64,000 nucleotides of DNA. Origin: an uncultured Gammaproteobacteria bacterium (GTDB lineage: Bacteria; Pseudomonadota; Gammaproteobacteria; CAYGNG01). How positions within the stretch are numbered: the stretch's first letter is position 1; every line of letters begins with the position of its first letter. This document shows, piece after piece, positions 1 to 52,760 of the stretch. The stretch spans positions 12,976 through 76,975 of the forward strand of contig CAYGNG010000005.1 of assembly GCA_964351225.1 (NCBI GenBank), read 5' to 3'. The translations under genes and the position numbers were made by a program. A model generated the notes under the pieces. That model saw only the letters and a program-made list of their open reading frames with translations, did no database searches and had not been told where the DNA came from.

Positions 1-102
1 GTTTATTTTATTATCATCGGTGACTTCGCCAACTAATGCTGCAACTTTTGATGTCCCAATATCCAGACCAACAATGAGATTTTTATCCGGTTTTTTAGCC
101 AT
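1..102 (-). CDS. ftsA: Cell division protein FtsA, N-terminal fragment (gene continues beyond window start)
   Basis: Reverse-strand translation from ATG at 102-100 gives MAKKPDKNLIVGLDIGTSKVAALVGEV..., the conserved FtsA N-terminus (actin-like ATPase fold); position downstream of ftsQ as in canonical dcw clusters. Confidence 0.75.
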   Translation of the reverse strand, partial: MAKKPDKNLIVGLDIGTSKVAALVGEVTDDNKIN

Positions 103-208
103 AAGTTAACCAGCCCTGCTTAAAGATACCATATGTTATATCTCAGTTTCTCGTGCCGCCAATATAACATAACTTATTTGTTTTCGCTTGAAAAGATGAC
201 AACAAACC

Positions 209-952
209 TTAGCCTTCTTTATTGTCATCTCGAGCAACCGCAACACCATTTGGATAGCGCAAATCAACAGAGCGAATGGCTCGTGGATCATTGGCTATCA
301 ATTGCGGGTATAGCTTGATAAATCTGTTAAGCCTTGTCAGTAACTGATCCCGGCCTAACTCTAAAACAACACCGCTTTTCAGCGTTATTTGCCATGCCCC
401 ACGCTCACTGACGAGCAGTTGACTGATGGTAAAACCACCTTGAGCCAATACTTGGCTCATTTGCAAATACCATTGATAAATCAAAGATTGCCTATGCGCC
501 GGCCCAAATAAATTCGGTAAATTTTCTGGAATGGTATCTGGATGCGGATAGTATATTTCACCCGCAGCGCTAATTAATGCCGTTTTATTGAAATGAGCGA
601 CGGCTATTTTTTCATGGATCATCAACACCAGTGTGCTTGGCCATATTCTTCGAATCGAAACAGAAGCAACCCAAGGCAATTGTAAAATTCTTTCATGAAG
701 TCCGTGAACATCTACCGCAAAAAACCCCTTTACCGTTTGCTCGGTTACGATGTTTTGCAAATCAGCTCGGTCAATATGAGGGATATTGCCATGGATCTCA
801 ACTTTTTGGATCGGGAAAATACTATCTAAATGTAACGAAGGCGCCGACGAAACCAAAGAAAATAAAGCGACAATAACAATGCTCGCACCCAGAAAAAAAG
901 GCACAAGCCGTGTTGATAAAAAGCGATCAAAAAATCCATTTTTATTAATCAT
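209..952 (-). CDS. ftsQ: Cell division protein FtsQ (POTRA domain, single N-terminal TM)
   Basis: 247 aa ORF with N-terminal TM helix and POTRA-like region; sits between murB and ftsA as in dcw clusters. Confidence 0.85.
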   Translation of the reverse strand: MINKNGFFDRFLSTRLVPFFLGASIVIVALFSLVSSAPSLHLDSIFPIQKVEIHGNIPHIDRADLQNIVTEQTVKGFFAVDVHGLHERILQLPWVASVSIRRIWPSTLVLMIHEKIAVAHFNKTALISAAGEIYYPHPDTIPENLPNLFGPAHRQSLIYQWYLQMSQVLAQGGFTISQLLVSERGAWQITLKSGVVLELGRDQLLTRLNRFIKLYPQLIANDPRAIRSVDLRYPNGVAVARDDNKEG

Positions 953-957
953 GTACG

Positions 958-1863
958 CTAAAAAAATTCCCCAATTATTTTAATTTCTGGTTGCAGCCTA
1001 ATCGAAAACTTATCCATTACCACACCTTGCGCTAAATGAATCAAAGCTTCTATATCTGAGGCCTTGGCATTTTGATCGTTTACAATAAAATTTGCGTGTT
1101 TCTCAGAAATCACCGCCCCACCAATTCGCTGGCCCTTAAGCCCAGACACCTCTAACAATCGCCCGGCATAATCTCCTTTAGGGTTTTTAAACACCGACCC
1201 CCCTGAAAAAACACCAGTTGGTTGCGTTACCCCACGTTGATGTAAACACGATTTTATCGCTTGTAACGCCTCTTTAGCACACCCGGATTGCAAAGCTAAG
1301 GTGGCTGCGACAAACCATTCATCCCCTAATCCCTCAACCTGGCGGTATGCCACGGTAAAGTCCTCCGCATTTCGCACCCGCACGTTACCAGTCCTATCGA
1401 TTGTTTCAACGGCCACCACGTGGGCCCAGGTTTCTCCGCCAAAAGCACCCGCATTCATGGCCAAAGCCCCCCCCATCGTACCCGGGATCCCAGCCAAAAA
1501 CGCAACTCCCATCAACCCCAATCGCGAGCAAAATTTCGCAACTTTGGCACACGTCACGCCAGCCTCTACCCGAACATGGGTTGCATCAAGTTGAGCGATT
1601 TCACGCAATCCCCCTTGTGTCAAAATGACCGTGCCTCGGACCCCACCCTCTCTGATCAGGGTATTACTTCCCAAACCCAACCAAGTCACCGGCTCACCTG
1701 CGGGGCAGTTTGCTAGAAATTGCTGACAATCGGCTAAATCAGCTGGACGAAACAACCGATCGGCCAAACCACCGACATGCCACGAGGTGTAAGCGGCTAA
1801 ACACGGATTTAACAGCAGATCGCCACGCCACAACCGATTTTTAGTATCAATAACCGAGTTCAC
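958..1863 (-). CDS. murB: UDP-N-acetylenolpyruvoylglucosamine reductase MurB
   Basis: 301 aa; FAD-binding MurB family sequence (…[15 protein letters not shown]…, …[12 protein letters not shown]…); dcw context. Confidence 0.9.
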
Positions 1864-3302
1864 AATGACGAAGCCCCTGTCGTTGTCTCCCTAGGAAGTT
1901 GCATTTTTAATTTGGCCAATTTCTCAGACAACGCACCAATGTTGCCAGCACCTTGCATTAAAATCACATCCCCATCTTGAATTAAATTATGCAAAACTGG
2001 CAACAGCTCCGCATTATCGGCAACCAATACCGGCTCTCGCAATCCTCGTTGCCGAATACTGCGACAAAGACTGCGGCTGTCTGCACCATTGATCAGCGTC
2101 TCGCCAGCGCTATAAACTTCTAATAAAACCAGCTGATCCGCTTGCGATAACACCGCCACAAAATCTTCGTATAAATCTCGGGTTCGGGTATATCGATGCG
2201 GCTGAAAAACCACAATCACTCTGCGTTCCGGCCAAGCTTGCGATAACGCTTCGTAGGTCACCGCCACTTCTCGCGGATGGTGGCCATAATCGTCAACTAA
2301 CAACACCGTTTTGTCATGAATTTGATATTCACCATAAACTTGCATTCGACGACCGATTCCCTGAAATGCCGCTAATGAAGAAAAAATCGCCTGTTCGGGA
2401 ATATTCAACTCATACGCAACCGCCAGCGCAGCTGTCGCATTCAATGCATTATGACGGCCCGCTAAATTCAAACGCAGATCACGTAATTCACGGCCATCGG
2501 GAAAGCGAATAGAAAACTGGCTTTGCATACCGTGTTGTTGGTAATCAAGCAGTCGCACATCCGCTTCTGGATGAAAGCCATAGGTTAATGCCGCACGCGG
2601 CAATTCAGCACGAAGCGCATTTATGGTTGGATCATCAATACATAACACGGCTAAACCATAAAACGGCAAGTTATGCAAGAACTCTAAAAACGTTTTACGC
2701 AACCGATTAAAATCACCACCATAAGTACCCATATGATCTTGATCAATATTGGTGACTATGGCAATCATCGGCATCAAATGTAAAAAAGAGGCATCACTTT
2801 CATCGGCTTCTGCGACCAGATATTTGCTTTTGCCTAAATACGCATTGGAACCGGCGCTATTTAATTTTCCGCCAATAACAAAAGTCGGGTCAAGCCCGCC
2901 TTCGGCCAGCACCGACGCAGTTAAACTGGTTGTGGTGGTCTTACCATGGGTACCCGCAATGGCTATCCCAAATCTAAAACGCATTAATTCTGCGAGCATT
3001 TGCGCTCGTGGTACAATCGGGATCCGTGACTGCATGGCAGCAACAACTTCTGGGTTATCTTTGGGAATGGCCGATGAAACCACCACCACATCAACACCCA
3101 CGACATGGCTGGCTTGTTGGCTTGAATAAATGGTTATTCCCAGCTCAGACAAACGACGAGTCATTTCATTCTCTGTGCGATCTGAGCCGGTAATCTCATA
3201 CCCTTCGCGCAATAAAATTTCAGCAATCCCGCCCATCCCGGCACCACCAATTCCAACAAAGTGGATCCGGTTTGTTTTATGCATTCTTCGTTTACTTTCC
3301 AC
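1860..3302 (-). CDS. murC: UDP-N-acetylmuramate--L-alanine ligase MurC
   Basis: 480 aa; [17 protein letters not shown] Mur ligase N-terminal motif and [10 protein letters not shown]-loop; 4-bp overlap with murB. Confidence 0.9.
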
Positions 3303-3369
3303 AATTGCAACCTTTATGAACTTATTTAGCCCTTTATATTATCAAAAGCCGCTATTGGAAGCCATGAAG

Positions 3370-4461
3370 TTAGGTCTGTTGAGAAACTTGCAAACACTTT
3401 TCAGCAACGCGCACAGTCGGATCGCCGTGATGGCATCGCCTAGCCGCCAGGGCAAGCGCCAAACACTTTTCAGGCGACCGTAAATAGGGCTCAAGGTAAT
3501 TAAATAAATTTTCGGGCGTTAACGCCGACTCGGGGATCAAAATAGCAGCTTCTTGCGCAACAAGATACTGCGCATTTGTCGTTTGATGGTCATCCACTGC
3601 GAAAGGATACGGCACCAAAATGCTGCCTAAACCCGCGGCCGCTAATTCAGCAATGGTCAAAGCACCCGCCCTACAAATAACCAGATCGGCCCATTGGTAC
3701 GCCGATGCCATATCGTCAATAAAACTTTCTATCCTGGCCCCAACACCGGCTGTTGCATACTCTTCTTGGGTCTTCTCAAGATGCGCCCGCCCACATTGAT
3801 GCCAAATTTCAGGCCGACTGTCGAGCGCAATTTTTTGAATGCAGCGAGGAATTTGCTGATTTAATTTCAAAGCGCCAAGACTGCCCCCTAAAATTAATAA
3901 TTTCAAAGGCGGGGCGTGTGTCCTGAATCGCGCGCGCGGCTCTGGCAGTTGCGCAATATCACTCCTAACTGGATTGCCCGTCACTATCGGTTGCAGCCTT
4001 TCCGCAAAGGTATTTGGAAACGCCGCTAACACACAGTCCGCCAATTTAGCTAAATAGGCATTGGTCATGCCGGCAATGCTATTTTGCTCATGGATAACCA
4101 AAGGAACTCGCAATAACCACGCGGCTATTCCACCCGGGCCACTGGCATAACCACCCATCCCTAACACCACATGGGGTTTAAAGCGGCGCATAATCAGCAG
4201 CGACTGCACCACCGCTTGCAGCAATTGCCAAGGGAACATGAATTTCCGCCATAATCCCGAACGACGCACACCGCTAATCGGCAATAAATGCAGGGTAATA
4301 TTTGCTTGTGGAACCAAGGCCGTTTCCAAACCTTTCGCCGTACCTATCCACTCAACTTGACAACCAAATTGATCTTGTAACGTTTTAGCAACCGAAAGCG
4401 CTGGAATAACATGGCCACCAGTTCCCCCGGCCATAATCAAAACTCGTTTTGGATCATTCAT
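3370..4461 (-). CDS. murG: UDP-N-acetylglucosamine--N-acetylmuramyl-(pentapeptide) pyrophosphoryl-undecaprenol GlcNAc transferase MurG (start chosen at MNDPKRVLIMAGGTGGH; ORF extends to 4503)
   Basis: MAGGTGGHVIPAL glycosyltransferase family 28 signature; dcw context. Confidence 0.9.
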   Translation of the reverse strand: MNDPKRVLIMAGGTGGHVIPALSVAKTLQDQFGCQVEWIGTAKGLETALVPQANITLHLLPISGVRRSGLWRKFMFPWQLLQAVVQSLLIMRRFKPHVVLGMGGYASGPGGIAAWLLRVPLVIHEQNSIAGMTNAYLAKLADCVLAAFPNTFAERLQPIVTGNPVRSDIAQLPEPRARFRTHAPPLKLLILGGSLGALKLNQQIPRCIQKIALDSRPEIWHQCGRAHLEKTQEEYATAGVGARIESFIDDMASAYQWADLVICRAGALTIAELAAAGLGSILVPYPFAVDDHQTTNAQYLVAQEAAILIPESALTPENLFNYLEPYLRSPEKCLALALAARRCHHGDPTVRVAEKCLQVSQQT

Positions 4462-4468
4462 GTCGGTT

Positions 4469-5650
4469 TCATACTTTTGTTGCACGCTGTAAACAAAACG
4501 CATCTAAGCGATTCTCGTGATCAATCCGCAATATGATCCCAAGCATCATACAACACACCAATAAACTACTGCCGCCAGAGCTCATGAGAGGAAGTGTTAA
4601 GCCTTTGGTGGGTAATGCCCCAGCATTAACCCCTAGATTAATCAGGCACTGGATACTCAATAGCAATGTCATGCCATAAGCCATATAACCAGAAAAAAAA
4701 TTGGCGCTTACTATTGCCGTTTTCGCAATCTTAAATCCCCGGACTATTAAAAGCGCATACAGACTCATCATAACCAAGACACCCAACAAACCCATTTCTT
4801 CAGCAAGCACCGCAAACAAAAAATCGGTATGCGCCTCAGGCAAATAAAATAACTTTTGCACGCTCTCTCCAAGCCCCACCCCAAACCAACCACCGCGACC
4901 AAATGCAATCAATGATTGCGTTAACTGATACCCACTGCCATATTGCGAAGCCCACGGGTTTAAAAACGTTGTCATCCTTTGTATGCGGTAAGGCGCTGAT
5001 AAAGATACCAGGCCCACAACCAGCAACGCCATGGCGACTAATATTGCAAACCGCCACCATTTAACGCCTGATAAAAATAACAAACCCATGGTGGTAATTA
5101 AAATAACCACCGCAGCACCAAAGTCTGGTTGTAATAATAATAATAATGCAACGCCGCCGACCAGCAGAATGGGCTTCCAAAATGCTGAGGAAGAATCCAG
5201 TAAGGCTTCTTGGTGTCTTGCCATATAACCGGCTAAATAAATCACGAAACAGAATTTCGCCAACTCTGAAACTTGCATTCTAAAAAATATCAAATTAATC
5301 CAGCGCGTACTGCCATTTACTGTTTTTCCTAGGCCGGGAATATAAACCAGTATGAGTAAAAAAAATGTTGTCAGCAATAATGCATTGCGAATCTTATATA
5401 AATAATCCGTATCAATGCGCAATAACACTAATATCAACCCCAACCCAATGCCTAAGAAGAGTAGTTGCCGATAGAGATAGTAAAAAGGTTGCTGATATAA
5501 TCGGTCGGCAATCACCATCGAGGAAGAGGCAACCATCAATAAACCCATAGCAATAATGGCTACGGCCGCAAACAAGAATACGCGATCGTATAATGCGATG
5601 GTTTGAACAGTTTTCGATGAATGATAGGCCATATTATTTTGTGATCTCAT
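4469..5650 (-). CDS. ftsW: Peptidoglycan glycosyltransferase FtsW (SEDS family)
   Basis: 393 aa polytopic membrane protein, SEDS family features, between murD and murG. Confidence 0.9.
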   Translation of the reverse strand: MRSQNNMAYHSSKTVQTIALYDRVFLFAAVAIIAMGLLMVASSSMVIADRLYQQPFYYLYRQLLFLGIGLGLILVLLRIDTDYLYKIRNALLLTTFFLLILVYIPGLGKTVNGSTRWINLIFFRMQVSELAKFCFVIYLAGYMARHQEALLDSSSAFWKPILLVGGVALLLLLQPDFGAAVVILITTMGLLFLSGVKWWRFAILVAMALLVVGLVSLSAPYRIQRMTTFLNPWASQYGSGYQLTQSLIAFGRGGWFGVGLGESVQKLFYLPEAHTDFLFAVLAEEMGLLGVLVMMSLYALLIVRGFKIAKTAIVSANFFSGYMAYGMTLLLSIQCLINLGVNAGALPTKGLTLPLMSSGGSSLLVCCMMLGIILRIDHENRLDAFCLQRATKV

Positions 5651-6987
5651 TGGTTTTGAGCCATGACCAAACGCGCAAACTCATTACCACGATGTTCAAA
5701 GTTTTGAAACATATCCCAACTGGCACACGCCGGCGCCAATAACACGGCATCATGCGCTTTGGCTTTCTGTCTTGCCAAATTAACCGCTTCTTCCAGCGTA
5801 TTAACCACATTGATCTCAGTACAACCATGCAAAGCCTCTGCGATGCGCTGCTTATCCCTACCATACAATATGGCTGATTTGACGGTCTTGAGTACGCTGT
5901 CTCTGAGTAAGTGGAAATCGGCACCTTTGCCATCACCACCGGCAAGCAACACAATTTCGCCTGAAATAATTGCGCTTATCCCAGCTAGTGAGGCAACGGC
6001 TGATCCCACATTGGTTGCTTTAGAGTCATTAAACCAAAAAACGCCATCATTGGTCGGGATTAATTGGCATCGATGAGCTAAGCCCGTAAAGGTTGTTAAC
6101 ACCTCGAGCATTGCCGATAGCGGTAACGCGAGCGCTTGCCCAATGGCTAGCGCAGCTAGGGCATTCAACCAATTATGCTGACCCAGTAACTTCATCTCTT
6201 TGGTCGCAAGCAACCGTTCATTGCCAAAACAAAACCACGTTTCTCCTGCAAAAGTATCTATTCCAAATTGACTGGCTTTCGGTGGGTTTTGGGTAAACTC
6301 GATAGAATGCTTACCTGAATGCTTTTTAGGAAACAGCGCCGGCTCGTCAGCATTAATCACTGCCGTTTTGGCATGGTGATAGATTAGTTGCTTTGCTTGT
6401 AAATATTTTTCAATGCTGCCATAACGATCCATATGATCTTCACACAGATTGAGGATCACCGCGACATCGGCGGCCAAAGAAGGTGTCAGCTCTAATTGAT
6501 AACTGGATAGTTCTAAGATATACCATTCGATATCCGCTTGTGGTAACAAATCAAGCACCGGGATCCCGATGTTACCACCGACTCTGGCTTTCACTCGAGC
6601 CTGCTTTGCCATCTCTCCCACTAACGAGGTGACGGTACTTTTGCCATTGGTTCCGGTGATAGCCACAATCTTGGCATCAACCTGACGCAAAAATAATTCC
6701 ACATCCCCAATCAAAGGGATCCCTGCGCGAGTGGCTGACTGCAACATCGGATGGTCCATGACTACCCCAGGACTCAAAATGATTTCATCCACTTCAGCAA
6801 AGCGCGCCTCCGGCCAATCGACTAAGCACACCTCAATATTGGGAAATTGCTGTTTGAACGCTGTTAAATTCTGTGGCTTATCACGGGAATCGAATACCAT
6901 GAAGGGCACGTGTTGTTGGGCAAAAAAACGCGCCACACTCATCCCCGTCATACCTAATCCAAACACACATTTTTTTTTATCGTGCAT
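5647..6987 (-). CDS. murD: UDP-N-acetylmuramoylalanine--D-glutamate ligase MurD
   Basis: 446 aa; GLGMTGMSVARFF N-terminus and AITGTNGKST P-loop; 4-bp overlap with ftsW. Confidence 0.9.
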   Translation of the reverse strand: MHDKKKCVFGLGMTGMSVARFFAQQHVPFMVFDSRDKPQNLTAFKQQFPNIEVCLVDWPEARFAEVDEIILSPGVVMDHPMLQSATRAGIPLIGDVELFLRQVDAKIVAITGTNGKSTVTSLVGEMAKQARVKARVGGNIGIPVLDLLPQADIEWYILELSSYQLELTPSLAADVAVILNLCEDHMDRYGSIEKYLQAKQLIYHHAKTAVINADEPALFPKKHSGKHSIEFTQNPPKASQFGIDTFAGETWFCFGNERLLATKEMKLLGQHNWLNALAALAIGQALALPLSAMLEVLTTFTGLAHRCQLIPTNDGVFWFNDSKATNVGSAVASLAGISAIISGEIVLLAGGDGKGADFHLLRDSVLKTVKSAILYGRDKQRIAEALHGCTEINVVNTLEEAVNLARQKAKAHDAVLLAPACASWDMFQNFEHRGNEFARLVMAQNQ

Positions 6988-7000
6988 ACGATTTCCTACC

Positions 7001-8083
7001 CTAACGTAATTTCAATGTTGCCAGTCCACATAACACCAAAACTACCGTAATAATCCAAAATCGCACAATTATCTTCGGCTCGGGCCAACCAATTAATTCA
7101 AAATGGTGATGAATGGGCGCCATTTTAAAAATTCGCTTTCCGGTTAATTTAAATGAAGCGACTTGTAAAATGACCGAAACCGTTTCTAATACAAAAATTC
7201 CTCCCATAATAAACAATATCAATTCTTGGCGAACCACCACGGCAATAATACCCAAAGCACCACCGAGGGCTAGCGAACCGATATCGCCCATGAACACTTG
7301 TGCCGGATAGGTATTAAACCACAAAAACCCCAGACCAGCGCCAAAGATAGAGCTGCAGACAACCACCACCTCCCCCGCGCCAGGAACAAAAGGAATTTCC
7401 AAATATCGAGAAAATTCCGCATTACCGGTAACATACGCGAAGATCCCAAACGCACCGCCGACCAACAGCACCGGCATGATAGCAAGCCCATCTAAACCAT
7501 CCGTTAGATTAACCGCGTTACTGCTCCCTACTATCACAAAACTGGTGAAAATAATGAAAAACACCCCCAAATCCGGCGTCACATTCTTAAAAAATGGAAC
7601 CACCAACTGCGTCTCAACCGGAACCGTGGCTTGCAAATATAACAAGGTGGTCACCAGCAGGGCCGCTGTAAATTGCCAAAATAATTTCCATCTGCCAGAT
7701 AAACCTTTGGCGTTACGCTTAGCAATTTTTCGATAATCATCGACCCACCCTATCAAGGCATAAGCCATCGTAATAAAAACTATCAACCCTATATAGATAT
7801 TTTTAAGATTTGCCCACAGTAACGTTGCAAGAACAATACTAATAATAATAAGTAGCCCACCCATCGTTGGCGTGCCGGCTTTTTGCAGGTGTGATTGTGG
7901 ACCATCTTCGCGGATCATTTGCCCTAGTTGAAACTTGGTCAACCAATAAATCATTTTGGGTCCAACGGTCAGCGACATAACCAGTGCTGTTAAACTGCTT
8001 AAAATCGCTCGTAGAGTAAGATAATGGAAAACATGGAAACCGTGATAATATTGTTTTAAGTATTGGGTTAACCATAACAGCAT
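7001..8083 (-). CDS. mraY: Phospho-N-acetylmuramoyl-pentapeptide transferase MraY
   Basis: 360 aa; near-colinear identity to E. coli MraY ([27 protein letters not shown]…, …[14 protein letters not shown]…, …[25 protein letters not shown]…). Confidence 0.95.
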
Positions 8084-8142
8084 ATATCAACCTTTTATCA
8101 TCAGTGGATTACAAACTAGTGGAAAAAGAGCTTTGAAGCGCC

Positions 8143-9666
8143 CTACTGGTGACTTTCTAAACCAGTGGCAGCATAAGCACAATCATTGAACGGATAACGT
8201 TGCCCTGCTATTTCTTGGTAATCCTCATGCCCTTTGCCGGCAATTAATACCACATCTCCTGTTTGCGCACTAGCTATCATTTCATGAATCGCCGCTGCTC
8301 GGTTTAAATTAATCGAAAATGAATAAGAACTATCAAATCCCATCACAATTTCATCGACTATTTGCTTGGGATCTTCGCCACGAGGGTTATCGTTCGTCAC
8401 CAGCGCACGATCCGCATAACGCGCCACGGCTTTTGCCATCAGCGGCCGTTTCTGCCGGTCGCGCTCTCCGCCACAGCCAAAAACGCAAAATAACTGCCCT
8501 TTGGTGTGAGTTTTTAGTACAGATAACACTTGTTCTAAGGCATCGGGCGAATGGGCATAATCAACAACCACAAGTGGCTTATCACCACCGCCCAATGTCT
8601 GCATGCGCCCGGGTGCCCCTTTTATTTGAGCCAGTCGTGCGGCCACCTCACTGAGCGACATCCCCATTAAATTAGCAACCGTTACCGTCGCCAACGCATT
8701 ACTCAAATTAAACCGCCCCAGTAGTGGAATAACCAGTTGCGTATGGCCCCATGGGGTATCGACCTCGGCACGAATGCCCGTCTCAGAATATTCCATGTCA
8801 CAGGCGATAATGGTGCGAATACCAGGCATCGTCCGCCCCTCGATAGAGTAACCATATACTTGCAATTTGACGCTTAATTCTTTACATAATGCCAGCCCAA
8901 ATTCATCATCTAAATTAATCACGGCTTGACGCAGACTGGGAACTGAAAACAATTTGCGCTTTGCTTGCCCATAACGCGTCATATCACCATGATAATCCAG
9001 ATGTTCATGCGTTAAATTGGTAAAAACGCCGATATCAAAAATAACATTATTCACCCGACCTTGATCTAAAGCATGTGAGGACACCTCCATGGCCACCGCT
9101 TGGATCCCTTGGCCGCGAAGTTCGGCCAGAGTCCTTTGTACAGAAACCGCATCGGGTGTCGTAAGATTGCCCGCTTTAATGTCATGGACAGGTCCAGATC
9201 CCAAGGTCCCAATAACGCCACTGGCAATGCCTGCTGCACGTAATATTTGGGCAATAAAAAGCGTACAAGATGTTTTACCATTGGTGCCAGTAACCCCTAT
9301 TAATTTCATCCACCGTGAAGGATAATGAAAATAGCGTGCCGCAATATAACCAATTCGAAAACGTAACTGTTTGAGCATAACATGGGTAATGCCAGCGATC
9401 TCCGTCGCGTACGACTCCCCAGCCATTAAATCACGAATGATAACGCAAGCGCCTTTATCTACCGCCTCTTTTATGTAATCTATCCCGCCCCCGAAAGCAA
9501 CAAAGGTGGAGCCGTTGGTGACCGCGCGACTATCTACAAAAAGATCGGTAACCGATTTATCGAGATGCGCTGGAATATCGACAATTCCAGATAACAGTTC
9601 GCTTAACAGAACCGACTTGGTCGATATACGCGGTTGTTTAGTGCATTTTATCATCGGGCGCCACAT
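8143..9666 (-). CDS. murE: UDP-N-acetylmuramoyl-L-alanyl-D-glutamate--2,6-diaminopimelate ligase MurE
   Basis: 507 aa Mur ligase; IGVTGTNGKTS P-loop and Mur-ligase C-terminal DNPR motif; followed directly by mraY (no murF in between). Confidence 0.9.
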   Translation of the reverse strand: MWRPMIKCTKQPRISTKSVLLSELLSGIVDIPAHLDKSVTDLFVDSRAVTNGSTFVAFGGGIDYIKEAVDKGACVIIRDLMAGESYATEIAGITHVMLKQLRFRIGYIAARYFHYPSRWMKLIGVTGTNGKTSCTLFIAQILRAAGIASGVIGTLGSGPVHDIKAGNLTTPDAVSVQRTLAELRGQGIQAVAMEVSSHALDQGRVNNVIFDIGVFTNLTHEHLDYHGDMTRYGQAKRKLFSVPSLRQAVINLDDEFGLALCKELSVKLQVYGYSIEGRTMPGIRTIIACDMEYSETGIRAEVDTPWGHTQLVIPLLGRFNLSNALATVTVANLMGMSLSEVAARLAQIKGAPGRMQTLGGGDKPLVVVDYAHSPDALEQVLSVLKTHTKGQLFCVFGCGGERDRQKRPLMAKAVARYADRALVTNDNPRGEDPKQIVDEIVMGFDSSYSFSINLNRAAAIHEMIASAQTGDVVLIAGKGHEDYQEIAGQRYPFNDCAYAATGLESHQ

Positions 9667-11317
9667 TTAAAATTCTCAATGCCCCACCCATCACTTTTGC
9701 AAAAATAGGCGCAGCAACACGACCACCATAGTACACTTTTCCACGCGGATCATGAATAACAACAGCAACCACTAGCCTGGGCTGGCTTGCCGGGGCTAAC
9801 CCAACAAAAATACTATTATGCCTGTTTTTCTCATACCCATATTTTCCCACGATACGTGTTGTGCCTGTTTTGCCACTGACACGATACCCTGGAACCCGAG
9901 CAAGTGGTGCTGTTCCCCCTCGTGCGACAACGGACTCCATCATGGTGACAATCTGTCTTGCCATATTGGCAGTGATCACTCGAACACCATGACTTAATTT
10001 ATTTGTTTTTAAAAACGTTACTGGATAACGTATCCCGCCGGATCCGAGAATAGCGTAAGCATTTGCCAACTGCAAAGCCGTTACCGATATACCATAACCG
10101 AATCCCAAAGTGGCCAGGGTAAATGGCTCCCATTCGGAATGGTAAGGCAAGCGCCCCATGCTCTCTCCTGGAAAACCGCTTTCTGTTATTTCGCCAAAAC
10201 CAAAACGATGCAACAAACGATAGAGACGCTCTCCGGTCGATGCCAGCACCAGCTTCGAAACCCCGACATTGCTTGATATTTGTAAAATTGTCTCAACGGT
10301 AATTTTTCCGTGATTAATCCTATCTTTCACTTGATGACCATTCAAGGTTAAAAATCCAGGCGCGGTATTCACCAAGGTAGTTGGCTCAAAGTTCCCGCTG
10401 GCTAAGGCATTGGCAACCGCAAAGGGTTTCAGCGCCGAACCCGGTTCAAAAACATCCGTTACCGCACGATTACGATAACGGGCCATCTGGTTACTTTGCA
10501 AACGACTATTCGGGTTAAATGAAGGTTGATTAACCATCGCTAATACTTCACCATTGGTTACATTCATAACGATAATTGAGCCAGACTCCGCATGATACTC
10601 ATCTATCGCGGCCTGCAATTCACGATAGGCCAAATACTGAATTCTTCTATCGATACTTAATGTCAGCTCATTGCCGGGTTTCGGGGATTGCACAATATTC
10701 AGATCGTCAACCACCCGACCAATCCTATCTTTGACCACTCGTTTCTTTCCCGGGATCCCCCGCAACCAATTATCAAACGACAACTCTAATCCTTCTATTC
10801 CGTGGTCATCAATATTGGTTATTCCTAGAATATGAGCCATGATTTCACCTTCTGGGTAGAAGCGATGAAACTCTCCTTGTAAAAACAATCCTGGCAACCC
10901 AATAAGCTTAATGGCATTGGCAATCGTTGGATTAACCCCACGCTTAAGGTAAATAAATTCGCGTGCTTTATTTTGTTTTATCCGCTGCTTCAGCAACCGC
11001 GAATTGAAGCCAATCAATTTACTCACTTGTTGTAATCGACTATCTTGCACGGAAACCTCTTTTGGATTCATCCAAACAGAAGACACCGGTGTACTGATTG
11101 CTAATGGCTCACCATTGCGATCAGAGATAATCCCACGATAAGCAGGAATAGCCACGGTTCGTAAAGCACGAGCATCTCCTTGACTGAGTAAAAAAGCACG
11201 GTCCACTACCATCAACTGCACCATGCGCCCTATCAACCCCACTAATATTAACGTCAATAATCCCAGAACTATCCGATGACGCCAACGAGTCGGCCACTCG
11301 TCACCATACTTCTTCAC
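9638..11317 (-). CDS. ftsI: Peptidoglycan D,D-transpeptidase FtsI (PBP3)
   Basis: 559 aa; N-terminal TM, PBP dimerisation and transpeptidase domains (SxxK, SxN, KTG-type motifs: …FEPGSALKPF…, …SSN…, …KTGT…). Confidence 0.9.
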   Translation of the reverse strand: MKKYGDEWPTRWRHRIVLGLLTLILVGLIGRMVQLMVVDRAFLLSQGDARALRTVAIPAYRGIISDRNGEPLAISTPVSSVWMNPKEVSVQDSRLQQVSKLIGFNSRLLKQRIKQNKAREFIYLKRGVNPTIANAIKLIGLPGLFLQGEFHRFYPEGEIMAHILGITNIDDHGIEGLELSFDNWLRGIPGKKRVVKDRIGRVVDDLNIVQSPKPGNELTLSIDRRIQYLAYRELQAAIDEYHAESGSIIVMNVTNGEVLAMVNQPSFNPNSRLQSNQMARYRNRAVTDVFEPGSALKPFAVANALASGNFEPTTLVNTAPGFLTLNGHQVKDRINHGKITVETILQISSNVGVSKLVLASTGERLYRLLHRFGFGEITESGFPGESMGRLPYHSEWEPFTLATLGFGYGISVTALQLANAYAILGSGGIRYPVTFLKTNKLSHGVRVITANMARQIVTMMESVVARGGTAPLARVPGYRVSGKTGTTRIVGKYGYEKNRHNSIFVGLAPASQPRLVVAVVIHDPRGKVYYGGRVAAPIFAKVMGGALRILNVAPDDKMH

Positions 11318-20414: not shown

Positions 20415-21089
20415 TTATTGATCAATCCGATAGGAAGCGTTCACGATTTCTTGGGTAAAGTGAGTTCGAAGATAAAAGCCGCGAGGCAAGGTCTGGATTA
20501 TTTCCCCTTGCTCATTGATGGCGTAACATAAGGCTTTGCTATTGGCGGCTTTGGGTCGGATCTGTAAAGCTTGCCCATGTTTACCGGTAATAGACTCAAC
20601 CTTACCCTCGGCTATCATACCAGTTAATTCTTGCCAATCCCGTTGTAATACCCGTAATTGTGAGGCACTGGGTCGCCACAACAGTGGATTACCGATGATA
20701 CGCGCTTCAAAGGCTAATTGCGGATCGGATTGGATGGGGATCCAGAGTACTTGAGAAAGTTTACGACAGCAGGTCGAGCACTCCCAAGATTCGTTAGCGA
20801 TTTTCATTAAAGGAATAGAACAAACATAAGTGGTTTCTCGAGGTTTACCGGCACAGGTCACTGGAATGGTTTTTAACTCGATCCCTAAGTGCATAAAATC
20901 CGGCAACGGTTTACTACCGGCCACGGCACCCAGTGCAACTTCCAACAATTGACCTACCCAGCCCTTGGCATTAAGTGCCGTTTTCGGAATAGCCATTGCT
21001 AATTCTTGAGCGAGCTCTTTCAAAGTAAAACCCGCTAACGCTTGGGCGCGAATGAGCAACTCGTGTTCTGAAGCGGGCGTGCTAGCCAT
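20415..21089 (-). CDS. mutH: DNA mismatch repair endonuclease MutH
   Basis: 224 aa; strong colinear similarity to E. coli MutH (GWVGQLLEVALGAVAGSKPLPDFMHLGIELKTIPV vs [35 protein letters not shown]; …LQIRPKAAN…; …LPRGFYL…). Confidence 0.85.
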   Translation of the reverse strand: MASTPASEHELLIRAQALAGFTLKELAQELAMAIPKTALNAKGWVGQLLEVALGAVAGSKPLPDFMHLGIELKTIPVTCAGKPRETTYVCSIPLMKIANESWECSTCCRKLSQVLWIPIQSDPQLAFEARIIGNPLLWRPSASQLRVLQRDWQELTGMIAEGKVESITGKHGQALQIRPKAANSKALCYAINEQGEIIQTLPRGFYLRTHFTQEIVNASYRIDQ

Positions 21090-49481: not shown

Positions 49482-49781
49482 ATGAAGATCGACGCACAAC
49501 AAGTAAAAGCTATCGCAAATTTGGCTCGAATTGAAATTGATGAAAAAGATATTGAACAATATAGCGAAGACTTAACAAAAATCCTCACCCTGTTCACAAT
49601 ATTAAACCAACACAACATGGTCAACGTGGAGCCAATGTCTCATCCGCTCGATGTTTCACAACGGCTGCGCCAAGATGACGTCACTGAAAACATAACAGAG
49701 AATGACCAATTCGAACGCTTGCAAGCCCTTGCTCCACGCCTTGAAAATCATTTATACCTTGTTCCTAAAGTCATTGAGTAA
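49482..49781 (+). CDS. gatC: Glu-tRNA(Gln) amidotransferase subunit C GatC
   Basis: 99 aa; …[16 protein letters not shown]…LYLVPKVIE matches GatC family C-terminus. Confidence 0.85.
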
Positions 49782-49791
49782 GGCCCAAAAG

Positions 49792-51249
49792 ATGCATCAC
49801 CATTCGCTCGCACAACTCGCGCAACAGCTGATAAATAAAACCATTAGCAGTGTTGAACTCACCCACTACTTTTTAGCACGGATCCAAGCACTGGATAAGC
49901 ATCTCAACAGTTTCATTACGGTATGCGAAGACGGCGCACTTGCAGCGGCAAAACGAGCGGATAAACGCCGTGCCAAAGGAGAAAACACGCCACTACTCGG
50001 GCTCCCGCTCGCTCATAAAGATATTTTTTGCACGCAAGGAGTCACCACGACCTGTGGTTCGAAAATGCTCGAAAATTTTGTCTCCCCTTACGATGCCACC
50101 GTCGTAAAAAAGCTGCGCCAAGCCGGCATGATCACGCTGGGTAAAACCAACATGGATGAATTCGCCATGGGCTCCTCTAATGAAAACAGTTACTATGGCC
50201 CAGTCAAAAACCCGTGGGATACCACAATGGTTCCTGGCGGCTCGTCTGGCGGTTCAGCGGCAGCGGTCGCTGCCCGACTCGTGCCTTTTGCCACCGCAAC
50301 GGACACCGGCGGATCGATACGGCAACCGGCGGCTTTATGTGGGATCACGGGATTAAAACCAACCTATGGTCGCGTTTCACGCTACGGCATGATAGCTTTT
50401 GCATCGAGTTTAGATCAGGCTGGCCCCATGACCCTCAGTGCCGAAGATGCGGCCATGATTTTAACGGCAATGGCTGGATTTGACCCAAATGATCCAACCA
50501 GCATCGACCAACCCACTCCAAACTATCAAGCCACGCTTAATCAAGATCTGCGTGGTTTGAAAATCGGTTTGCCCAAAGAATATTTTACCACCGGTCTCGA
50601 TAAACCGATCGAACAGTCTATTCAAGAAGCAATCCACGTTTTAATCCGCTTAGGCGCCACTTGCCAGGAAATTTCTTTACCTCATACCAATCTTGCGATT
50701 CCAACTTATTACATCGTCGCTCCCGCTGAATGCTCATCCAATTTATCGCGTTTCGATGGCGTTCGTTTTGGCCATCGAACTCAACATCCTAAAAACATTC
50801 ATGATCTCTACTGCCAAACCCGTCGTGAAGGCTTTGGAAGAGAAGTGCAGCGTCGGATCATGATAGGGACTTATAGTCTATCCTCTGGGTTTTACGATGA
50901 CTATTATCTGAAAGCGCAGAAGGCCCGCAGATTAATTGCCAATGATTTTAAAAATGCCTTTACCGAAGTTGATGTTATATTAACCCCAACCGCACCAACC
51001 ACCGCTTTTAAAATTGGCACCAAACAGCACGATCCGATTCAAATGTATCTCTCCGATATTTTTACCAGTGCAACCAATTTGGCAGGCCTTCCCGGACTCT
51101 CACTCCCGATAGCACCCGTTAACGGTATGCCAGTCGGGATGCAATTGATCGGTAATTATTTTGCTGAAGGCCGACTATTAAATATCGCACATCGTTATCA
51201 AGGTGAAACCACTTGGCATACCGCCATCCCAGCATTATTTATTAAATAA
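49792..51249 (+). CDS. gatA: Glu-tRNA(Gln) amidotransferase subunit A GatA (start at MHHHSLAQL)
   Basis: Amidase signature [13 protein letters not shown]; gatCAB order. Confidence 0.9.
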
Positions 51250-51297
51250 GGCTTATTGCCATTTGCAGCCGAAAAAGCAATTGTCAACAGGCCCTAA
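51247..51297. repeat. Palindromic MITE/REP-like element, copy 6, between gatA and gatB; its terminal TAA is the gatA stop codon
   Basis: taaggcttattgccatttgcagccgaaaaagcaattgtcaacaggccctaa. Confidence 0.8.
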
Positions 51298-51317
51298 GAA
51301 AATCGAGGAAAACAAAA

Positions 51318-52760
51318 ATGGAATGGGAACCGATTATCGGCTTAGAAGTTCATATACAACTAAACACCCAATCAAAAATTTTTTCGGGTGCTGCCACCCA
51401 ATATGGCGCCAAGCCGAATACCCAAGCTTGCGACATTGATTTAGGCTTGCCTGGCGTACTACCCTCCTTTAACGGTGAAGTCCTCAAAAAAGCCATCATG
51501 TTTGGCTTAAGCATTGAAGCTGAAATTGCAAAAAAATCGTATTTCGATAGAAAAAATTATTTCTATCCCGATCTTCCTAAAGGCTATCAAATCACCCAAT
51601 TTCGCAAACCAACCGTCGGCCGCGGACATTTAATGATCCCCCTGGCCAATGGTGAATTAAAAAAAATTAATATAACCCAAGCACATATCGAAGAAGACGC
51701 CGGCAAATCATTACATGAAGATTTCCACGACATGACTGGGATTGATTTAAATCGTGCCGGCATCCCTTTGATTGAAGTGGTTTCCGATCCTGATCTGCGC
51801 TCACCGGAAGAAGCCGTGACTTATTTGAAAATGCTCCACGCGCTGGTTCGATATTTGGATATTTGTGATGGCAATATGCAGCAAGGCTCTTTCCGCTGCG
51901 ATGCCAATGTCTCTGTGCGCCCCAAAGGGGAAACAAAACTCGGCACCAGAACTGAAATAAAAAATGTCAATTCATTTCGCTTTGTTGAACGTGCGATTAC
52001 TTACGAAATTCAACGACAAATTGCATCTTTAGAAAATGGTGAAAAAATTCAACAAGTCACCCTGCTGTATGATTCCGAGAACAATATCACGCGCCCCATG
52101 CGCAGCAAAGAAAATGACCAGGACTATCGTTACTTCCCCGATCCCGATCTGTTACCCATTGTAATTGACGATGATTATATTAATCAGATCAAAGCATCGC
52201 TGCCTGAGTTACCACAACAAAAAAGGCATCGATTTCAACAAGATTATCAGCTCTCACCTTACGATGCCACAATCATCACCAGTCAAAAAAGTGTGGCTGA
52301 CTATTTTGAAAACGTCTGCCAATTCATCCCCAATCATCCTAAACTCGCAGCGAATTGGATCATGGGAAACCTAATGGCTGCCCTAAATAAAGCACAACTC
52401 GACATTGATCAGTCACCGATCTGTTCCCAGCAGCTCGCAGAATTACTCATGCGCATTGCCGATAAAACCCTCTCAAGCAAAATCGCAAAAACGGTTTTTG
52501 ATGCCATGTGGCAACAACTCGGATCGGCGGATGACATCATCGCAGCCCAAGGGTTAACGCAAGTCTCGGATCAAAGTGAAATTGAAAAATTAGTGGCACA
52601 AGTGATTGCTGATAACCCTAAACAATTGCAACAATACCGAGAAGGCAAAGACAAACTGTTTGCCTTTTTTGTGGGGCAAGTGATGAAGCTTTCTGCTGGC
52701 AAAGCCAACCCACAACAAGTTAACGACTCTCTACTGCGGGCATTGCAAAAACCGCAATAA
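51318..52760 (+). CDS. gatB: Glu-tRNA(Gln) amidotransferase subunit B GatB
   Basis: 480 aa; [23 protein letters not shown] conserved GatB N-terminus. Confidence 0.92.

Follow-up and report, generated by a model that had tools for sequence, protein, structure and literature searches.

Where does a gammaproteobacterium encode the two consecutive steps that build D-Ala-D-Ala and add it to the cell-wall precursor, if neither murF nor ddl is found in its division and cell wall (dcw) cluster? Both genes are missing from their usual places in the cluster described here, and they could be encoded at another site, be replaced by an enzyme of unusual form or be lost altogether. Most likely the locus represents an unusual gene order and not a new pathway.

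Organisation of the dcw cluster

The cluster lies on the minus strand of the window, the whole 64 kb stretch of DNA that was analysed, in the order mraZ-rsmH-ftsL-ftsI-murE-(59 nt)-mraY-murD-ftsW-murG-murC-murB-(5 nt)-ftsQ (Table 1). Open reading frames and profile matches reproduced the gene order and both gaps of the original prediction exactly to the base. Every gene of the cluster exceeded its curated NCBIfam cutoff except ftsQ, whose identity also follows from the Pfam domains POTRA_1 and FtsQ_DivIB_C. The window ends within ftsA; beyond it the cluster continues as ftsA-ftsZ-lpxC-(dciA)-secA-mutT, which is complete in the overlapping locus L083 (positions 1-1486 of L083 correspond to window positions 1486-1 at 100% identity). 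Both the 5' module of the proteobacterial dcw type (mraZ-rsmH-ftsL-ftsI, co-oriented) and its 3' module (ftsQ-ftsA-ftsZ and then lpxC, from the L083 gene table) are present. The dcw operon is genuine and intact, and its genes are probably co-transcribed. A candidate promoter, Pmra, was found upstream of mraZ as a consensus match, in a region where the total of sigma-70-like sites is no greater than in shuffles.

Table 1 Features of the dcw cluster, in window coordinates
Feature	Position	Strand	Evidence or remark
Candidate Pmra, sigma-70-type promoter-like site 5' of mraZ	13111..13140	-	TTGACA-18-TATAGT, 11/12 matches, consensus match only
mraZ	12596..13054	-	TIGR00242, 156 bits vs cutoff 98
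rsmH (mraW)	11664..12599	-	TIGR00006, 366 bits vs cutoff 154
ftsL	11314..11667	-	TIGR02209, 75 bits vs cutoff 42
ftsI, division DD-transpeptidase, PBP3 type	9638..11317	-	NF011685, E = 3e-159
murE, 507 aa	8143..9666	-	TIGR01085, 487 bits vs cutoff 257
murE-mraY non-coding spacer, 59 nt	8084..8142	-	Stops in all three frames
mraY	7001..8083	-	TIGR00445, 453 bits vs cutoff 192
murD	5647..6987	-	TIGR01087, 430 bits vs cutoff 212
ftsW	4469..5650	-	TIGR02614, 418 bits vs cutoff 337
murG	3370..4503	-	TIGR01133, 357 bits vs cutoff 250
murC, 480 aa	1860..3302	-	TIGR01082, 552 bits vs cutoff 335
murB	958..1863	-	NF010480, 342 bits vs cutoff 259
murB stop-ftsQ start gap, 5 nt	953..957	-	
ftsQ	209..952	-	PRK10775, E = 9e-35, 120 bits vs cutoff 366 (weak)
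ftsA, first 34 codons only	1..102	-	L083 gene table

Two vacant slots

In the canonical E. coli cluster (mraZ-rsmH-ftsL-ftsI-murE-murF-mraY-murD-ftsW-murG-murC-ddlB-ftsQ-ftsA-ftsZ-lpxC) the shared genes have the same order and orientation as here, including the lpxC-secA-mutT continuation, and the cluster proteins are 40-62% identical, a typical inter-order distance within the class. The present cluster differs in that murF and ddl are absent and murB is placed after murC. Neither the murE-murF-mraY adjacency of the proteobacterial type nor a ddl between murC (or murB) and ftsQ is found; as predicted, murE is followed after 59 nt by mraY, and murB after 5 nt by ftsQ. This absence is a statement of gene content and not a chance pattern. 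Translation of the 59-nt spacer gave nothing recognisable as a murF remnant, and no terminator-like site was found in it. The spacer does contain a purine-rich AAAAGG, eight nt 5' of the mraY ATG. Searching the whole 64 kb window by tblastn returned only paralogous Mur ligases with E. coli MurF and a best E of 2.8 with E. coli DdlB. MurF and Ddl homologues are likewise absent from the flanks, which extend 9.6 kb to the left and 1.8 kb to the right (about 11 kb, from an independent assembly).

Neither enzyme is concealed in a neighbouring gene. Mur chimeras are single polypeptides, usually of more than 800 aa, that span both enzyme profiles, whereas the match of MurE (507 aa) is confined to positions 27-499 of the 965 in the MurE/MurF profile NF008896 and that of MurC (480 aa) to positions 1-447 of the 809 in the MurC/Ddl profile NF011171. 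The view that no MurE-MurF or MurC-Ddl fusion is hidden here, proposed from protein length, is borne out by these single-enzyme matches.

The vacant slots might also be an artefact, with the region collapsed, misjoined or misbinned and the real chromosome carrying a canonical cluster. The source is apparently a metagenome-assembled contig, and the independent Logan assembly stems from the same sequencing run (ERR3534985), so that the two assemblies share reads. They are two different assemblies, identical to the base (100% identity) over both junctions. At both junctions the order of elements is biologically tidy: a stop codon in its proper place, a spacer, a stretch rich in purines and a start codon. 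Furthermore, a collapse requires repeats, and none is common to murE and murF or to murB and ddl; two separate, precise excisions through misassembly within 8 kb would be implausible. The assembly collapse that the original prediction had kept as an alternative is accordingly very unlikely.

The layout among gammaproteobacteria and in Bacillus

As a baseline for comparison, 80 loci were taken from an MraY scan of species-representative genomes, among the matches listed; the relatives among these matches were inter-order only, at no more than 67% identity. murF lies between murE and mraY in all of the gammaproteobacterial loci compared at this position (73/73) and is tightly coupled to mraY in 61 relatives, the two genes overlapping by a median of 7 nt. 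It is also kept in the contexts of the two nearest MurE homologues. Relocation of ddl, by contrast, is common within the class: the gene occupies its slot in 60/70 loci and is missing from 10/70, Vibrio, Shewanella and Aeromonas included. The description of the murB-ftsQ junction as the place where ddl normally sits therefore suits the 60 loci and fails for the ten gammaproteobacterial loci that already lack ddl there. Clusters of the Vibrio/Shewanella/Aeromonas type resemble the present one in the absence of ddl between murC and ftsQ, but they keep murF and do not have murB in the cluster. murB was found inside the cluster in 4/70 loci, and in L031, L056 and L058 it is followed by ddl. We considered L071, a MAG contig with murC-murB-ftsQ and no ddl, as a relative and rejected it, as it proved no closer than the others (mean identity 49%); this contig begins at mraY. 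The layout without murF and ddl is rare among gammaproteobacteria.

Outside the class the arrangement is familiar. In Bacillus and Staphylococcus the dcw cluster has the order murE-mraY...murB-divIB, with murF and ddl co-transcribed at another site. The Bacillus subtilis operon is the textbook precedent for the same layout (PMC1925097), the Bacillus type being defined by murE followed by mraY, murB followed by ftsQ/divIB, and murF and ddl outside the cluster (PMC1925097; PMC9603463). To say that both genes normally sit in the two slots was thus an overstatement, as the whole layout is normal in B. subtilis (PMC1925097). Both Bacillus-type adjacencies, murE-mraY and murB-ftsQ/divIB, occur in our cluster. 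In contrast to the Bacillus type, where murC is outside the cluster, murC is still inside here, and a spoVD duplicate is lacking. The Bacillus type also has a separate ddl/murF unit; no such unit was seen in the 76 kb covered here. Because the proteins encoded here are gammaproteobacterial, the likeness is convergent.

A poorly sampled lineage

In a search of 5.8 billion proteins the closest MurE was 49% identical, and no close relative was found in the databases searched with MurE, SecA and the comparison loci. A SecA search picked out a single relative, 73% identical, whose 6-kb contig (run SRR14610208) carries no dcw genes; the next matches form a plateau at 65-68% from gammaproteobacteria of the sulfur-oxidiser type. 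The organism belongs to a deep-branching and so far unsampled lineage of gammaproteobacteria, represented by one sequencing run and one distant relative. Coding density in the region is high (about 0.95, at a GC of 45%), and pseudogene debris is absent; no signs of genome decay were seen in 76 kb, and regulatory and accessory genes are present (rpoN, ptsN, hprK, rapZ, mutH, gss, tldD/pmbA).

Also encoded on the contig are a protein of 806 aa whose ankyrin repeats are genuine and four large ORFs, of 301 to 1205 aa, that belong to no Pfam or NCBIfam family. These proteins hint at an association with a host.

Supply of MurF and Ddl

Alignment to E. coli FtsI showed that the SxxK, SSN and KTG motifs of the transpeptidase are intact. 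MurE keeps its DNPR (meso-DAP) motif and P-loop, the catalytic Asp and His residues of MraY are likewise in place, and murA and mreBCD are intact within the window. Judged by these motifs, the rest of the peptidoglycan pathway looks functional. The FtsI DD-transpeptidase requires a D-Ala-D-Ala donor. On the favoured reading the cell still makes meso-DAP peptidoglycan cross-linked by a DD-transpeptidase, and so it needs D-Ala-D-Ala as well as the step that joins this dipeptide to the tripeptide. MurF and Ddl are therefore most likely provided in trans, from one or two other chromosomal loci, as happens in Bacillus and Staphylococcus.

We infer that murF and ddl exist elsewhere in the genome, which we consider likely, and that they are possibly linked there; the order of events is reconstructed in the same way. 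In the simplest history, a second copy of the pair would have arisen through duplication, or a linked ddl/murF unit would have been acquired, and the in-cluster murF and ddl would have been lost after this second copy arose, each cleanly excised from its ancestral slot (murE-murF-mraY and murC-murB-ddl-ftsQ). Some points count against a location elsewhere: neither gene has itself been found, the sequence covered being the 64 kb window and flanks of about 11 kb, the departure of murF is without precedent in the 73 sampled loci and the two nearest MurE contexts, and the ankyrin-repeat protein and large orphan ORFs keep a loss with complementation alive. At present the locus is a gene-order curiosity in a poorly sampled lineage. 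The loss of exactly the two D-Ala-D-Ala steps from the cluster makes it a small natural experiment on gene-order conservation, for which assembly of a Mur ligase complex and MurE-MurF coupling are candidate causes. Should murF and ddl sit together at another site, the lineage would have converged on the Bacillus solution.

Total loss of murF and ddl, with the other steps still under selection, would be a more far-reaching explanation. Both the synthesis of D-Ala-D-Ala and its addition would then be supplied by the product of a host nuclear gene, by a co-resident bacterium or by an unrecognised enzyme, or the wall would be built with tripeptide stems. The same pair of genes is inactivated in Sodalis endolongispinus, for which host-encoded murF and ddl copies are known; MurF is also reported to be imported into a symbiont (bioRxiv 10.1101/2021.01.28.428658). 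Mealybug symbionts (Moranella; Sodalis endolongispinus) are comparable in that the pair absent or inactivated in a gammaproteobacterium is again murF and ddl, and the ankyrin-repeat protein, the four family-less ORFs and the orphan status of the lineage would fit such a life. However, the mealybug cases involve recent pseudogenes, a decaying genome and documented host copies, whereas the present locus shows clean excisions in a dense, intact region with many regulatory and accessory genes. The deletions are old, yet all other pathway genes are intact with their catalytic motifs, among them the FtsI that depends on a D-Ala-D-Ala donor, and one insect system is the only one in which such complementation by a host has been documented. 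We therefore regard true loss, in any of these forms, as improbable. A genome without both genes would point to a split or unconventional wall pathway and, after the mealybug symbionts, the second independent case of a split pathway; this would be important, but is unlikely on present evidence.

The two steps might instead be carried out by an enzyme of unusual form encoded elsewhere, such as a non-orthologous ligase or a protein in which MurF is fused to alanine racemase or, in either order, to Ddl. That two successive steps disappeared together would fit replacement by a single gene, and an NCBIfam model (NF008897) exists for MurF/alanine racemase. We know of no non-orthologous enzyme that adds D-Ala-D-Ala. 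Proteins that fuse neighbouring steps of this pathway are familiar (MurE-MurF, MurC-Ddl), although a survey of Mur chimeras gives five main types, none of them MurF-Ddl (PMC10214165). A profile joining MurF and Ddl end to end, designed to bring out such fusions, was run against 5.8 billion proteins and the best 120 matches were inspected. A proteobacterial-type MurF-Ddl fusion would be expected to score near 1000 bits, yet none was present among these 120, a result that speaks against the fusion idea; the organism's own MurF would fall below the best 120, and on its presence the search is silent. We accordingly hold an enzyme of unusual form to be quite improbable as well. The best 120 matches consisted only of MurE-MurF chimeras, scoring up to 705 bits, and of plain MurF at about 600 bits.

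Gene order and junctions of the dcw cluster

The division and cell wall (dcw) cluster in the window has neither murF nor ddl, the two genes that make and attach D-Ala-D-Ala. ORF calls give an unbroken series of same-direction genes on the minus strand (1-13140), in which NCBIfam models identify, in order, mraZ, rsmH, ftsL, ftsI, murE, mraY, murD, ftsW, murG, murC, murB and ftsQ. All exceed their curated cutoffs except FtsQ, the identity of which is backed by Pfam domains. The original prediction placed both junctions exactly: a 59-nt spacer separates the end of murE (8143) from the start of mraY (8083), and 5 nt separate the end of murB (958) from the start of ftsQ (952). Only 34 codons of ftsA fall within the window; L083, a Logan contig of run ERR3534985 that extends past its left end, matches it identically over the shared part and carries on with ftsA-ftsZ-lpxC-(dciA)-secA-mutT.

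We give almost no weight to the layout being an assembly error. Both junctions are covered at 100% identity by three Logan contigs (L002, L083 and L084), which come from the same sequencing run and another assembler and are thus independent at the assembler level only. Nor would a collapse be expected to leave two such clean and biologically orderly excisions, separated by 7 kb. The arrangement is real and exact.

No hidden copy was found. MurE (507 aa) aligns with no more than the initial half of the bifunctional MurE/MurF profile, and MurC (480 aa) likewise with that of the MurC/Ddl profile, which bears out the claim that neither is a disguised fusion. In tblastn searches of the 64 kb window, E. 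coli MurF recovered only its paralogues MurE and MurD, and the best E value for E. coli DdlB was 2.8. Mur ligase and ATP-grasp domains were absent from the unannotated ORFs of the window, and neither gene lies in the recovered flanks (9.6 kb left, 1.8 kb right). Every frame of the 59-nt spacer contains stops, and no recognisable murF remnant is present in it.

Comparison with other bacteria

An MraY-seeded scan of species-representative genomes provided, among the matches listed, 80 gammaproteobacterial loci for comparison. As had been proposed, the murE-mraY gap is where murF normally sits: it lies there in 73 of the 73 listed loci having both genes. The two nearest MurE contexts also retain murF. 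Coupling in relatives is tight, with a median murF-mraY overlap of 7 nt. The corresponding claim for ddl holds less strictly, as the gene lies between murC and ftsA in 60 of the 70 listed loci with both, but the other ten, among them Vibrio, Shewanella, Aeromonas, Microbulbifer and two MAGs, already lack it. Within the class, clusters that have lost ddl are therefore commonplace, which is not true of clusters that have lost murF. Few listed loci carry murB inside the cluster (4/70), and three of these (L031, L056 and L058) have the order murC-murB-ddl-ftsQ, likely the ancestral state of the window's lineage.

Outside the Gammaproteobacteria this layout is textbook, and the same murF- and ddl-less arrangement is standard in Bacilli. 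The B. subtilis cluster is missing three genes of the E. coli cluster (PMC9780078), murF and ddlA of S. aureus are co-transcribed at a separate site (PMC9603463), and reviews describe murC, murB and ddlB as frequently outside the cluster (PMC8871954). The original interpretation is reasonable, yet less remarkable than its wording; what is new here is only a gammaproteobacterial instance.

Other non-canonical arrangements were observed. In L085, a JGI metagenome contig with a gammaproteobacterial-type cluster, a 445-aa gene with no Pfam match (11501-12838) lies between murE and murF, and the cluster stops directly after mraY. On an 8.7-kb contig of Candidatus Parabeggiatoa communis (L035), mraY is solitary: neither flank yielded a further dcw gene, and the cluster of that lineage is fragmented.

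Presumed requirement for D-Ala-D-Ala and its probable source

DD-transpeptidases take a donor substrate that terminates in D-Ala-D-Ala, so the Ddl and MurF functions are presumably still required by the cell. In FtsI the SxxK, SSN and KTG motifs are preserved, as are the P-loop and DNPR meso-DAP motif of MurE and the catalytic Asp and His residues of MraY. The murA and mreBCD genes are likewise intact.

Genome-wide loss of both genes with complementation from outside would be much more interesting, and has a striking precedent in Sodalis endolongispinus, where precisely murF and ddl are inactivated and host copies exist (bioRxiv 10.1101/2021.01.28.428658). However, that genome is decaying, whereas the window lacks the same pair in a region without decay, and we consider such loss improbable. 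That the functions reside elsewhere in unusual form, as a fusion or a non-orthologue, is very doubtful: a concatenated MurF+Ddl profile retrieved only MurE-MurF chimeras and plain MurF among its best 120 matches, and MurF-Ddl is missing from a published survey of Mur chimeras (PMC10214165).

On comparative and biochemical grounds, we consider it probable that MurF and Ddl are supplied in trans, by one or more loci elsewhere. The two genes might be linked there, as in Firmicutes, and a second copy would have made those in the cluster dispensable. The dcw operon itself looks continuous: a single strong promoter-like site precedes mraZ, the murE-mraY spacer is free of terminator-like sites, and a purine-rich stretch lies ahead of mraY.

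Placement of the organism and other features

For the window MurE a single exact match was recovered (NCBI plus Logan); after it, the closest sequence among 5.8 billion proteins is 49% identical. Seven cluster proteins are ~50% identical to those of every sampled gammaproteobacterium, the same divergence as between E. coli and Pseudomonas. The nearest SecA (73%) is on a single short Logan contig from SRR14610208 without dcw genes; below it, identities level off at 65-68%, with Thiohalobacter and Thiogranum in this group. By these nearest matches, the lineage is an orphan at roughly order-level distance from every sampled gammaproteobacterium.

Features of the window and its left flank
Feature	Position	Strand	Remarks
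RNase P RNA gene, class A	13882-14220	-	340 bits; upstream of mraZ
163-aa ORF	13278-13769		between RNase P RNA gene and mraZ; no family match
DAK2/FakA-like + DegV/FakB-type ORF, 632 aa	15150-17048	+	
Orphan ORF, 301 aa	17103-18008	-	no Pfam/NCBIfam match
Orphan ORF, 728 aa	18099-20285	-	no Pfam/NCBIfam match
mutH	20415-21089	-	above equivalog cutoff
Apparent LptC + LptA in one ORF, 307 aa	27318-28241	+	residues 13-162 LptC, 164-294 LptA
GatA and GatB	49702-52760		
Orphan ORF, 1205 aa	52833-56450	-	no Pfam/NCBIfam match
Orphan ORF, 1002 aa	56551-59559	-	no Pfam/NCBIfam match
Ankyrin-repeat protein, 806 aa	L083 8522-10942		~7 kb past window's left end; Ank_2 C-terminal, 57 bits (cutoff 27)

The window is ~0.95 coding with 45% GC, and E. 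coli-like synteny extends over long stretches (murA-mlaFEDC, kdsDC-lptCAB-rpoN-ptsN-rapZ and tldD-yhdP-mreDCB). At ~58-60 kb, GC falls to 0.40 and the AT skew is strongly negative. The four orphan ORFs may encode lineage-specific secreted or effector proteins. The ankyrin-repeat protein, encoded next to mutT, suggests a host-associated lifestyle, and with the large orphan ORFs hints at host association. A 145-aa ORF opposite the RNase P RNA gene is spurious.

The cluster proteins are as distant from E. coli and Vibrio as those of Pseudomonas are; MutH together with GatA/GatB at such a distance is odd for the taxonomic range usually tied to MutH. LptC and LptA are two separate genes in E. coli, and the 307-aa ORF is possibly a natural fusion of these two LPS transport bridge components. 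In the 632-aa ORF, a DAK2/FakA-like N-terminal region (residues 28-344) is followed by a full DegV/FakB-type fatty-acid-binding domain (350-627), an arrangement that resembles a fatty acid kinase fusion.
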